A stretch of DNA of 64,000 nucleotides. It comes from an uncultured Vicinamibacteraceae bacterium. GTDB taxonomy: Bacteria > Planctomycetota > Phycisphaerae > Phycisphaerales > UBA5793. Below are positions 339 to 6,869 of the stretch, in pieces. Made by a program: the position numbers and the translations under genes. The stretch covers positions 1,807-65,806 of the forward strand of contig CAZPFK010000005.1 in NCBI GenBank assembly GCA_964585855.1, given 5' to 3'. Positions within the stretch are counted from its first letter, which is position 1; every line of letters begins with the position of its first letter. Under the pieces are notes generated by a model. That model made no database searches. It had not been told where the DNA came from and saw nothing but the letters and a program-made list of their open reading frames with translations.

Positions 339-1736
339 ATGCGTGAGGTCGTCATGCGCGCCGCCCGCGTCAACGCCTATCGAAGCGCCCAGGCCAGCGA
401 ACTGGAGAACGCCGACAACCCCTTTCGTCGCCCGGTTCGGCCTGAAGACTTCGACGAAATGGTCCATTTCGAGAAGCCGCTGACCGCGCAGACGATGCTC
501 GACCTCGGCGGCCTGCTCTCCCACCGCCTGCTGTTGAACGTCTACGAGTCTGACTACACCTACCTCGCCGAATCCGGCTCTGCACCGGTCGTCGCCGACG
601 ACGGCCGCGCCTTCTACGGCGATGAGGCCCGCATTACCGGGGAAACCGCCCGGCCGCACCTGGAATCCTTTGTCTTCGGGTTCCTTGAGGACGAGATTCC
701 TGCCGGGGCCGGCGTCGGGAACGGGGCGGCTCTTCGGGTTGAAATCCTCAAGCGGGCAGAGGCGATGCGTGCCCGGCCCTGCCGGATGTGCGCCGCCGTC
801 GAGGGAGCCCACGATCGCGCCCGGGCAGCCCGGATGTTTGCGATTCAACTGGCCGGCGCCGGGGCCAGCCGTCCCGCCGCCCTCTGCCGAGGACTCTTCG
901 GAGAATTCGGCCCGGCTCAGCAGGCGATGATGAAGTGGGCGATGTCGGACCGGAGTCTCGGAATCGTCGAGGCCGCCGGCGGCGAAGGACGCCGCGCCCT
1001 GCTGCGATCCTGCGGCCTCAATGAGCACCTGCACGCCCACTGGCAGTTCTATCTCACCAGCGCCATGGCCGTGACGACCTTCCTGCACAGTCTCGGCCGC
1101 CACCACAACCGCTTGCCGGAATTCATCGGCGCGTGGCTCTGCGAGCGGGTCCACTTCGCCGCCTTCGCCCCGCGCTGGGCCGGGTCGATCGCCAACGCGA
1201 TCGGCACCGGCAGCGATGTTCGCTGGCTTACGCAGGCGGCCCGGGTCGATCTCGACTCCGGACCGGGAGGATTCGCCGACGTGGTTCAGCCGCTGCTCTC
1301 GCGGCTTGAGCCGGATGCCGCGGGTCGGGTGCTGGCCGGATGGGACCGGATGGCCCGCCTGTGGGACCTGGCCGAGGAGGACTTCCACGAGCAGATCAGG
1401 TTCGCCGATAACTTCGAGGAGTACCTGACGCTCGCCCGCCAACTCTCCGATCATCTGGAGAGCAACAGCATTGAGGTGGACCTCGAAACCTTCGTCGAAC
1501 CGCGCGAAATGTGTTCGACGACGCACGTGCACACGGAGGATCGCCTCATCGTCATCGAATCGGGCACGATGGAGTTCTGGAACGCTTATGGGAACTCGTT
1601 TGTCTTCAACGAGGGCGACCGATTCCTCGTCCCGCGCTTCCGTCTGCACGGTTCGACGATTCTCACAGAATCCTGCACCTATCACCAGCCGATCATCACT
1701 CCTGAGATCATGAACCAGGTCGTCGGAGCGACCTGA
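339..1736 (+). CDS. Two-domain protein with an N-terminal ~370-aa helical region of unknown function and a C-terminal cupin carrying a 3-His metal motif. Candidate tailoring metalloenzyme.
   Basis: Part of ORF 51..1736. The in-frame ATG at 339 is preceded by GGAGAG at 321-326, so I prefer it over 51. The C-terminus reads THVHTEDRLIVIESGTMEF...RFRLHG, giving HxH then 38 residues then H, a cupin-type triad. It lies 33 nt upstream of the next same-strand gene. Confidence 0.6.
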   Translation: MREVVMRAARVNAYRSAQASELENADNPFRRPVRPEDFDEMVHFEKPLTAQTMLDLGGLLSHRLLLNVYESDYTYLAESGSAPVVADDGRAFYGDEARITGETARPHLESFVFGFLEDEIPAGAGVGNGAALRVEILKRAEAMRARPCRMCAAVEGAHDRARAARMFAIQLAGAGASRPAALCRGLFGEFGPAQQAMMKWAMSDRSLGIVEAAGGEGRRALLRSCGLNEHLHAHWQFYLTSAMAVTTFLHSLGRHHNRLPEFIGAWLCERVHFAAFAPRWAGSIANAIGTGSDVRWLTQAARVDLDSGPGGFADVVQPLLSRLEPDAAGRVLAGWDRMARLWDLAEEDFHEQIRFADNFEEYLTLARQLSDHLESNSIEVDLETFVEPREMCSTTHVHTEDRLIVIESGTMEFWNAYGNSFVFNEGDRFLVPRFRLHGSTILTESCTYHQPIITPEIMNQVVGAT

Positions 1737-1769
1737 GACGGCCCCTCGAAGACGTGGAAGAGACCCGCG

Positions 1770-5500: not shown

Positions 5501-6869
5501 GAAGGTGCGCGGGTTCCGTATCGAACTCGGAGAAATCGAGTCGCGCCTGGTCAGTCATCCGGCGATCCGGCAGGCGGCCGTCCGCGTCTGGGAGACGCCC
5601 GGAGCCGAGAAGCGCCTCGCGGCCTACTACGTCACGGAGTCAGCGGCGCAGCCCCCGACGGATGCCGACCTGCGCGCTTTCCTGCGCGAGACGCTGCCGC
5701 ACTTCATGATCCCCTCGCACTTCCATCGCCTTGAGCGCATGCCCCTGACCACCAGCGGAAAGATCGATCGCAACGCCCTCCCCGCCGTCGGCTCCCGGCG
5801 TCCCGAAACAGGCCGGCCGCTGGTTCTTCCCCGCAACGCCGCCGAGCGCGCGCTGGCCGAGATCTTCGCCGAGGTCCTCGGCTACGACCGTGTCGGCGTG
5901 CAGGATGCCTTCCTCGATCTGGGAGGCAGCTCACTTTCGGCCGTTCGCCTCTTCGGCCTCATTCGTGAACGCCTCGGCACGCACCTGCCCCTCTCCACCC
6001 TCTTTGCCGCCCCGACCGTCGAAACGCTGGCGAAGACGATCGAACAGGAGGCTGCCGGCGGCCTCGCCGGTCGCTGGAAGAGTCTCGTGCCACTCAAGCC
6101 CAGCGGATCGCGCCGACCGCTCTACTTCATCCACCCTGCCGGCGGCAACGTACTCTTCTATCACGAACTGGCCAAACACCTCCCCGACGACATGCCCCTC
6201 TACGGCATTCAGTCGCGCGGCCTCGACGGCGAGGAAGAGCCCCTCACCACCGTTGAAGCCATGGCCGAGGCCTATCTCGAGGAAATCCGCTCTCTCCAGC
6301 CCGAAGGGCCGTACTTCGTCTGCGGCGCTTCCTTCGGCGGGCTGATTGCCTATGAGATCGCCCAACGGTTGACGGCCATGGGCGAGACGCTCGGACTGCT
6401 CTGCATGGTGGACACCTACGGCCCCGACTTCCGTGAACCGACCAAGTGGCTGCGCGTGGGCTACAAGGTCGCCGACCAGATGCGTCCTCTGCTCACGCTT
6501 CCGCTCAAGGAAAAACTCGAGTTCGTCCGCAAGCGCGCCCGACGGATTAAGGGCAAGATCGCCTCGAAAGTCGGGCAGGGTGAAGAGATTCCCTATCACC
6601 TCCGCGCCATCTTCATCGCCAACGCGGCCGCCGACGACCAGTACGTCGCAAAGCCCTACCCCGGCACGCTCCACCTCTTCAAGGGCACCATCCAGCCCAG
6701 CGGCGGACCGAAGGAGCCCGGCTTCGGCTGGGAGAAGTACGTCGCCGAAGTCGTGCCCATAGAAATCCCCGGCGACCACCTCACTATGGGGCAGGAAGAG
6801 GGGTCGATCGTCATGGCCGGCCACCTTCAGCGCATCCTCTACGACGTTGAGTCCCGCGTGCTGGTCTGA
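2538..6869 (+). CDS. Single-module nonribosomal peptide synthetase with domain order formyltransferase-like, C-terminal half of a condensation domain, adenylation, thiolation, thioesterase.
   Basis: 1443-aa ORF. A-domain core motifs: [107 protein letters not shown]. PCP motif [14 protein letters not shown]. TE motifs GASFGG and GDHLTM. The start is TTG at 2538 or ATG at 2568. Confidence 0.95.
   Translation: [1443 protein letters not shown]
2607..3107 (+). other. NRPS N-terminal formyltransferase-like domain (Formyl_trans_N-like) with a non-canonical catalytic motif.
   Basis: aa ~24-190. [29 protein letters not shown] and [17 protein letters not shown]...[22 protein letters not shown] follow the Fmt/ArnA/LgrA-F pattern (xNxHxSLLPxxRG....WAI, then G.T.H.M..G.D.G.I...L). 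The N-x-H spacing is not preserved; this protein has I-N-H. Confidence 0.5.
3570..4262 (+). other. Partial condensation-like region (C-terminal subdomain only); no HHxxxDG motif found.
   Basis: aa ~345-575 begin [19 protein letters not shown] and end [17 protein letters not shown]. That resembles the post-C4 half of C domains that runs into the A domain. I found no HHxxxDG string anywhere in aa 190-580. Confidence 0.5.
4290..5792 (+). other. NRPS adenylation domain.
   Basis: Core motifs A3-A10 as listed for the CDS, aa ~585-1085. Confidence 0.95.
5835..6047 (+). other. NRPS thiolation (PCP) domain.
   Basis: [19 protein letters not shown], aa ~1100-1170, with the carrier serine in GGSS. Confidence 0.9.
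6105..6827 (+). other. NRPS C-terminal type I thioesterase domain.
   Basis: [15 protein letters not shown], the GxSxG nucleophile elbow in [13 protein letters not shown], and a distal GDHLTM histidine; aa ~1190-1430. Confidence 0.85.

Follow-up and report, generated by a model that had tools for sequence, protein, structure and literature searches.

A compact planctomycete locus joining an SznF-like protein and a YqcI/YcgG protein to a one-module nonribosomal peptide synthetase: a candidate graminine-type pathway

The window analysed here, a stretch of 64,000 nucleotides of contig CAZPFK010000005.1 (assembly GCA_964585855.1), carries at its left edge three plus-strand genes arranged head to tail (339-1736, 1770-2537 and 2538/2568-6869). 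Homology and an AlphaFold2 model assign the product of gene a (339-1736, 465 residues) to the SznF/ChmM/GrbD type as a full-length protein. Gene b (1770-2537, 255 residues) belongs to the YqcI/YcgG family according to Pfam PF08892 and its homology to AglA. Gene c, an open reading frame (ORF) running from 2538 (TTG) or 2568 (ATG) to 6869, encodes a nonribosomal peptide synthetase (NRPS). The stop codon of gene a (TGA, 1734-1736) and the start codon of gene b (GTG, 1770) are separated by 33 nt, and the stop codon of gene b (TGA, 2535-2537) directly adjoins the TTG at 2538. A first-pass annotation made from the sequence alone had given the same coordinates, the 33-nt gap and this contact, all of which were recovered. 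The absence of a gap between genes b and c, however, holds only for the TTG start. A gap of 30 nt rather than 0 appears more likely from the sequence, because public gene calls place the start of the NRPS at ATG 2568 (1433 residues) and the family alignment needs nothing upstream of it. Gene a is likewise called at two lengths, 465 residues (ATG 339) or 460 residues.

The window is core chromosome, with genes for enolase, gyrB, ribBA, a miaB-like protein and pepA. The host belongs to the Phycisphaerae (Planctomycetota), its enolase being 73-77% identical to those of metagenome-assembled genomes (MAGs) of Phycisphaerales, Phycisphaeraceae and Tepidisphaeraceae. The three genes are intact and closely spaced, and their codon usage and GC3 are indistinguishable from those of host housekeeping genes; a recent horizontal transfer of the trio was rejected on these grounds. 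In two metagenome contigs that are almost identical to the window, six synonymous and two conservative non-synonymous differences were counted. The Logan contigs L001 and L002, from different runs, both end exactly at position 3238 of the window, which falls within the degenerate Fmt-like domain of the NRPS described below. This suggests a branch of the assembly graph at this position caused by strain variation or a repeated k-mer. Upstream of gene a, positions 1-338 form the intergenic region towards a divergent sulfotransferase-like gene, whose start probably lies just left of the window, and are presumed to be a divergent promoter region. A crude consensus scan found neither a sigma-70-like promoter nor a plus-strand terminator; there were no inverted repeats in 1-340 and no Rfam families in 1-14000.

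The product of gene a had at first been described as a protein ending in a cupin, with the motif HVH followed 38 residues later by another histidine, and the same spacing had been given for the SznF ligands H407/H409/H448. This spacing was right: these residues align to H396, H398 and H437, HVH occupies residues 396-398, and H437 follows exactly 38 residues on. This metal-binding triad (1524-1649; codons 1524-1532 and 1647-1649) is invariant in 34 aligned relatives. The relationship to SznF also stood, whereas the description as a C-terminal cupin alone did not. A phmmer comparison with SznF (PDB 6m9r) gave E=4e-59 over residues 23-449 at 29% identity, and the AlphaFold2 model, built with 34 homologues (pLDDT 90), matched SznF crystal structures in Foldseek with TM scores of 0.88-0.90 over approximately 452 columns, the cupin triad being kept in the alignment. 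The domain plan comprises an N-terminal helical and degenerate heme-oxygenase-like (HDO) region (residues ~1-375) and the C-terminal cupin (~376-455). The seven di-iron ligands of the SznF HDO domain, E189/E215/H225/E281/H311/D315/H318 (PMC7848743), correspond to R/D/G/R/A/D/S in protein a: five of the seven are lost outright, and in a sixth glutamate is changed to aspartate. All 33 aligned relatives have this degenerate pattern, and loss of the HDO di-iron site together with an intact cupin is the published signature that sets the ChmM/GrbD class apart from SznF. As judged by alignment and model, protein a is a full-length SznF homologue of the ChmM/GrbD subclass and not merely a cupin-ended protein. 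Its di-iron site is degenerate, and a separate heme N-oxygenase is therefore needed.

In a search of 5.8 billion proteins no relative of protein a exceeded 39% identity, and the nearest ones are mostly actinobacterial. Those in GTDB representative genomes, a set without the source genome, reach at most 38%, and JGI metagenome contigs yielded three loci only (30-33%). In L003 (6331-8178), a JGI metagenome contig, the closest relative, P0002 (39%), adjoins a fusion of a YqcI/YcgG domain with a class I/II aminotransferase. Methyltransferase-like and SnoaL-like genes lie close by and an NRPS is absent from that contig, which may represent a different, NRPS-independent use of the enzyme pair.

The assignment of gene b to the YqcI/YcgG family, made earlier from short sequence strings, was borne out by Pfam PF08892 (215.2 bits against a cut-off of 27, E=1e-63, profile positions 2-211 of 211). 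The strings themselves (YPCYLG, WEFSYHGVAMFVF, LLFQPRSVF and GGCPFRF) are all present, as is the HVH-38-H pattern of gene a. The protein matches AglA (PDB 9uba) with E=2e-38 and an aligned YPCY, and is 40-42% identical to the YqcI partners in loci L006 and L066 of the comparison set. With the GntA equivalog NF041366 it scores 46.8 bits (E=3e-12), under the cut-off of 145, and by this measure it is a family member and not a GntA orthologue. Cys49 within YPCYLG (1908-1925) aligns with YPCY of AglA, YPCH of L066 and FPC of L006. It was mapped by position, not by direct alignment, to Cys47 of ChmN, the axial heme ligand of that enzyme. A role as heme-dependent guanidine N-oxygenase, like that of ChmN, GrbE and AglA, is predicted for protein b. 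The argolaphos enzyme AglA and the guanitoxin enzyme GntA belong to the same family and keep the YPC cysteine; their pathways, in contrast, have no SznF-like partner and lead to N-hydroxyguanidines, not diazeniumdiolates.

By analogy, genes a and b are the published GrbD/GrbE or ChmM/ChmN pair, which makes L-graminine, an amino acid that binds metal and releases nitric oxide, from arginine; the likeness to grbD/grbE, which the first-pass annotation had put forward, is documented in the literature. Both grbD and grbE are essential for gramibactin formation, synthetic L-graminine rescues both mutants, and labelling showed that graminine arises from arginine. ChmN converts L-arginine in vitro to N-delta,N-omega-dihydroxyarginine, and 107 ChmN-type genes are co-localised with HDO-inactive SznF homologues. 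In vitro reconstitution of the cupin step has been reported for no GrbD/ChmM-type member. The antiSMASH rule for NRP metallophores already uses the pair as a detection marker, calling for GrbD and GrbE homologues plus a coding sequence with both Condensation and AMP-binding. Here the pair is present and Condensation was not found by Pfam in NRPS c. In 81 of 85 related loci the SznF-like gene has a YqcI gene at a distance of no more than 10 kb. The partnership is hence kept in relatives. The architecture of the trio occurs in none of the 85 loci, in agreement with the earlier statement that no characterised pathway with it was known, and an Fmt-like N-terminus is equally absent from all 85 pair-containing loci. 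The enzyme pair is already well known; what is new is a compact variant, not new chemistry.

The closest named relatives of protein a are of the actinobacterial type, ChmM/ChmN of chalkophomycin biosynthesis in Streptomyces (Crooke et al. 2024, PMC10849742), where a full-length SznF homologue that keeps the cupin triad but has an inactive HDO domain is likewise accompanied by a separate YqcI/YcgG protein, and where the inferred product of the pair is likewise L-graminine from L-arginine. Identities to the window proteins are only about 37-40%. The chm cluster is a 17-gene hybrid of NRPS and polyketide synthase (PKS) with N-hydroxypyrrole chemistry in Streptomyces, whereas the planctomycete locus has a single adenylation-thiolation-thioesterase (A-T-TE) module and no PKS. 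The same pair, genetically required for graminine, occurs in the GrbD/GrbE systems of Burkholderiaceae or Tistrella (gramibactin, megapolibactin, plantaribactin and tistrellabactin), whose GrbD-type proteins are 30-32% identical to protein a. Those clusters have multimodular NRPSs, MbtH, TonB-receptor and transporter genes, and a GrbE that is often fused to an NRPS, none of which is seen here. SznF, the N-nitrosourea synthase of streptozotocin formation (PDB 6m9r, 6vzy), has the three-domain fold and the cupin ligands in common with protein a. Its working di-iron HDO domain hydroxylates N-omega-methylarginine itself, whereas a heme enzyme would supply the hydroxylation here, and neither the trio nor its immediate surroundings yielded a methyltransferase gene.

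Three domains of NRPS c were recognised by Pfam: the A domain (4308-5771; AMP-binding, E=2.5e-89, and AMP-binding_C), the T domain (5850-6041; PP-binding, E=6e-14) with the phosphopantetheine serine motif GGSSLS at 5922-5939, and a type I TE (6114-6869; Thioesterase, E=8e-30) with the GxSxG motif GASFGG at 6324-6341 and a C-terminal GDH at 6768-6779. The core motifs of all three are intact. The Stachelhaus code was read from a MAFFT alignment with GrsA, whose sequence as used here reproduces the published code DAWTIAAICK, and is DVKHMGLIAK. Its agreement with the published graminine code DVHRTGLVAK extends to six of ten positions, and with that of the Paraburkholderia graminine module (L007; DVHRTGLIAK) to seven. 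The pocket-bottom residues G301, L322, I330 and A331 and basic residues at 239 and 278 are common to the new and the graminine code, and such basic residues would fit an anionic side chain.

Approximately 130 A domains were found in the 85 pair-containing loci, and exactly one of them has the identical code. It lies in Kitasatospora sp. NPDC048540 (L066), beside an SznF-like protein and a YqcI protein 42% identical to protein b. The A-T regions of the two NRPSs are 47% identical over 662 residues and their TE domains 30%. The Kitasatospora enzyme differs in being a C-A-T-C-TE protein (C, condensation) of 1806 residues with no Fmt-like domain, and major facilitator superfamily exporters and a LuxR regulator are encoded beside its pair. 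As substrate evidence, this co-occurrence appears stronger than the code match. The next-best pair-linked A domains are of the ChmO type (code DINYWGGIGK, at most 50% identity to NRPS c, in 39 loci), which the literature proposes as the graminine loaders of chalkophomycin biosynthesis; the loader code of the chm system, itself inferred, thus differs from DVKHMGLIAK. DINYWGGIGK is the commonest neighbouring code in the actinobacterial SznF-like/YqcI loci (L008-L087, e.g. L011:~1167 and L009:~1749). It is usually read as N5-formyl-N5-hydroxyornithine, which fits a loading of the isosteric graminine by ChmO. The number of different codes used for graminine may thus be three or more, and DVKHMGLIAK would be the third candidate, searchable in genome mining.

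Upstream of the A domain, NRPS c carries a degenerate Fmt-like didomain with N and C subdomains (2568-3527) and a truncated condensation-like domain of which only the C-terminal lobe is left (3528-4307). The order Fmt-like, half C, A, T and TE given in the first-pass annotation was right. Pfam detects the A, T and TE domains only; its best match to the N-terminus itself is Formyl_trans_C with 20.6 bits against a cut-off of 21.1, and the Fmt and C parts otherwise go undetected. The complete order was accepted because homologues and a structure model carry these parts. An exhaustive phmmer search of 1.84 billion representatives with the N-terminus returned 1335 relatives, 818 of them at E<=1e-10, at the N-termini of NRPS-like proteins. 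It overturned a preliminary view of these ~580 residues as an orphan region, which had come from a word-indexed search of 5.8 billion proteins without a match. Eight relatives were scanned and showed Formyl_trans_N and mostly Formyl_trans_C, in one case with a partial Condensation domain, followed by A, T and sometimes TE domains; a luciferase-like monooxygenase often interrupts the A domain. The domain order of NRPS c recurs in one relative, P0128, which matches the Condensation profile at positions 183-456. The PDB match to McyB covers only the end of the C domain and the C-A linker, and the NCBIfam PRK05691 alignment starts at residue 514. In the AlphaFold2 model of the N-terminus (pLDDT 88), the first ~320 residues match Fmt and ArnA with target-normalised TM scores of 0.69-0.78.

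The catalytic Asn/His/Asp of formyltransferases is replaced by R, Q and F in NRPS c (codons 2862-2864, 2868-2870 and 2979-2981). The third position is F, or G by alignment, and an acidic residue is absent from the loop. The E. coli Fmt reference sequence used here reproduces the numbering N108/H110/D146. All three residues are kept together in 144 of 150 family representatives, and each of them in 96-99%. The catalytic subdomain retains 53% of 36 family-conserved columns (family mean 92%, minimum 69%) and is the most degenerate among the 150 representatives. In contrast, the truncated C part keeps 100% of its family-conserved columns, and the motif HHxxxDG occurs nowhere in the protein. The Fmt-like and C-like parts are regarded as structural relics because the catalytic Asn/His/Asp and HHxxxDG are absent: judged from the sequence, the Fmt-like domain has lost its catalytic function, and its truncated C neighbour is probably a structural platform for the A domain. 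We consider it extremely unlikely that the Fmt-like domain is active in spite of its substitutions and yields an N-formylated amino acid, of the hydroxamate type or N-alpha-formylated, even though its fold is retained with high model confidence and relatives of the same order have canonical F domains. The F domains of NRPSs formylate the alpha-amine of a tethered residue, not a side-chain hydroxylamine, and the N-formyl-N-hydroxy hydroxamate suggested earlier as a product of this domain was abandoned on both counts.

Other N-terminal Fmt-type domains provide a partial parallel. OzmO-type 'FMT_core_NRPS_like' loaders are also N-terminal Fmt initiation modules, and in LgrA an Fmt-type domain is fused to an A-T module as in NRPS c. 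The LgrA F domain, however, has ~193 residues and directly abuts the A domain, whereas the family of NRPS c has both Fmt subdomains and a truncated C domain over ~570 residues. No characterised product for this F-truncated-C-A-T(-TE) family was found in the literature search. The first A domains of the family have many codes (Gly, Ser, Thr and others), none of them DVKHMGLIAK, and because the codes vary, the scaffold is uninformative on the substrate. P0123 (3979 residues), the nearest relative of the Fmt-like part (32%), also lacks Asn/His/Asp (A, Q and none) and heads a multimodular NRPS; there may be a subclade of NRPSs that keep dead F domains as scaffolds, of which NRPS c would be an example.

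Considered as a whole, the locus is probably a graminine-type pathway attached to a minimal one-module NRPS, a reading to which we attach moderate confidence. From its homology to ChmN and AglA, protein b would N-hydroxylate free L-arginine at N-delta and N-omega, with O2 as well as a housekeeping ferredoxin/reductase. By homology to that of SznF, the Fe(II) cupin of protein a would then oxidatively rearrange dihydroxyarginine, forming the N-N bond of the C-diazeniumdiolate L-graminine, while the HDO-like domain without its di-iron site would be structural only. The A domain of NRPS c, with a large pocket lined by Lys and His, is predicted from pocket code and co-occurrence to activate graminine or a close analogue and to load it onto the T domain. 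The Fmt-like and truncated C domains, by their sequence incapable of formylation and condensation, would be retained as a structural platform. The TE would be the sole catalyst of release or bond formation and might, more speculatively, yield a small product derived from graminine that could chelate metal and release NO (nitric oxide); a homo-oligomer or a cyclised form would be most likely, and a transfer product possible. The small metallophore or NO donor proposed in the first-pass annotation is plausible in this respect.

Several points weigh against this reading. The A-domain code alone is not decisive because the serine code DVWHLSLIDK matches it equally, at six of ten positions. The Kitasatospora NRPS begins with a C domain and lies at the edge of the fetched region, and could therefore be the terminal module of a longer assembly line. 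ChmM is inactive in vitro on free hydroxyarginines, and for a lone A-T-TE module that lacks a working C domain there is no obvious route from a free amino acid to an amide-linked product. Neither exporter, TonB-dependent receptor, MbtH nor phosphopantetheinyl transferase genes were detected with Pfam/NCBIfam among the window ORFs scanned and the 1.3 kb to the left; the siderophore reading is weakened because these are missing. Only three known sequences contain the locus: one contig of a MAG and two short ones from metagenomes. The similarity to the serine code, the visibly degenerate Fmt-like domain and the unique architecture of the trio would also agree with an NRPS that is functionally unrelated to the pair, or with a decaying locus; serine or another ordinary amino acid would then be the substrate of the A domain, and its position next to genes a and b a coincidence. 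This seems distinctly unlikely to us: an independent pair in another phylum is accompanied by the identical ten-residue code, NRPS c has intact A, T and TE motifs, the truncated C part has lost none of its conserved columns, strain variants are mostly synonymous, and the intergenic gaps are just 30-33 nt.

The inactivity of ChmM on free substrates is compatible with a different order of events, in which the A domain loads arginine or a (di)hydroxyarginine, the cupin of protein a creates the N-N bond while the substrate is bound to the T domain, and the TE hydrolyses off graminine. Such a course follows the logic of L-alanosine biosynthesis. For an A-T-TE module whose Fmt-like domain is dead and whose C domain is truncated, hydrolysis would be the simplest output, and no further NRPS was found among the ORFs scanned in the window. 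It is nevertheless unlikely, since free L-graminine rescues grbD and grbE mutants, which implies that graminine-type A domains accept the finished free amino acid. Moreover, ChmN acts on free L-arginine, and the Lys/His pocket, like the His/Arg of the proven graminine code, suits an anionic diazeniumdiolate better than a guanidinium group. That NRPS c is a carrier scaffold from which the TE frees graminine, or hands it over to an acceptor, for instance the glycan machinery encoded nearby, is similarly improbable. If true, it would account for the inactivity of ChmM-type proteins on free substrates, and the trio would be a three-gene system for reconstituting diazeniumdiolate formation.

The neighbouring genes bear on the fate of the TE product. 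To the right, at 6932-10064 on the plus strand, lie genes for a glycosyltransferase family 2 (GT2) protein, a Wzy_C/O-antigen-ligase-like protein and a GT4 protein of the PEP-CTERM/XrtA type (TIGR03088, E=4e-45). The left flank was read from Logan contig L001, which extends 1295 bp beyond the window, and holds the sulfotransferase-like gene on the minus strand (L001:386-1291; 3'-phosphoadenosine-5'-phosphosulfate (PAPS) loop GAPKCGTT, Sulfotransfer_3 E=2e-8). As this gene is divergent, the trio has no same-strand continuation to the left, where the first-pass annotation had thought that the cluster might extend. With the GT2/Wzy/GT4 genes on one side and the sulfotransferase-like gene on the other, the surroundings look like an exopolysaccharide locus around the trio.

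From this arrangement it could be imagined that a glycan or glycolipid made by the products of the neighbouring genes receives graminine from the TE, giving a diazeniumdiolate-decorated exopolysaccharide. The same-strand run from 339 to 10064 has no terminator-like site, only 63 nt follow the NRPS gene before the next gene, the GT genes overlap, and the GT4 protein resembles exopolysaccharide glycosyltransferases of the PEP-CTERM/XrtA type. PDB matches of the TE include the AB3403, Pks13 and EntF TEs, the Pks13 TE aligning full-length. Pks13 TE transfers its product to a sugar. This likeness is generic, however, as AB3403, EntF and fatty acid synthase TEs score similarly; a neighbourhood seen in a single genome carries little weight, and terminators were sought with a crude consensus only. 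A functional link between trio and neighbours is unsupported by comparison because homologues of the neighbours, the GT and Wzy genes among them, occur in none of the 85 pair-containing loci, and we regard such a transfer as very unlikely.

If the graminine-type reading is correct, graminine-type chemistry would extend to the Planctomycetota. A recent survey found NRP metallophore clusters in one of 1034 genomes of this phylum, and our literature search found no link between Planctomycetota and the biosynthesis of diazeniumdiolates. The characterised graminine producers all rely on large assembly lines; the trio would be the smallest candidate system for heterologous reconstitution and may yield the simplest graminine-derived metabolite found so far. 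The compact locus also bears on the question of how a GrbD/ChmM-type cupin makes the N-N bond of graminine.

The remainder of the window contains several further groups of genes. A 914-residue ORF (10069-12813, minus strand) with a signal-peptide-like N-terminus is convergent with the GT4 gene and has no Pfam or NCBIfam match. Three genes for T2SSE/PilB-type ATPases (13846-15534, 18394-19536 and 19661-21352, plus strand) lie within 8 kb, interleaved with ribBA and a gene of the endonuclease/exonuclease/phosphatase family. Near 24 kb the GC skew changes from negative to positive where the predominant gene strand goes from plus to minus; this switch is probably no replication landmark, because the coding strand appears to be C-rich. 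SpoIIE/PP2C phosphatase genes are found on the minus strand at 28720-30138, 30135-31586 and 49666-51483, the first two in tandem with a 4-nt overlap and the third with a GAF domain. Two tandem paralogues at 45514-46827 and 46887-48068 (minus strand) show weak DUF4394 matches. Close to the right end, a plus-strand ORF of 2030 residues (57834-63926) has cytochrome c domains and, at the C-terminus, a CarboxypepD_reg-like domain; giant multi-domain proteins of this kind are typical of planctomycetes.

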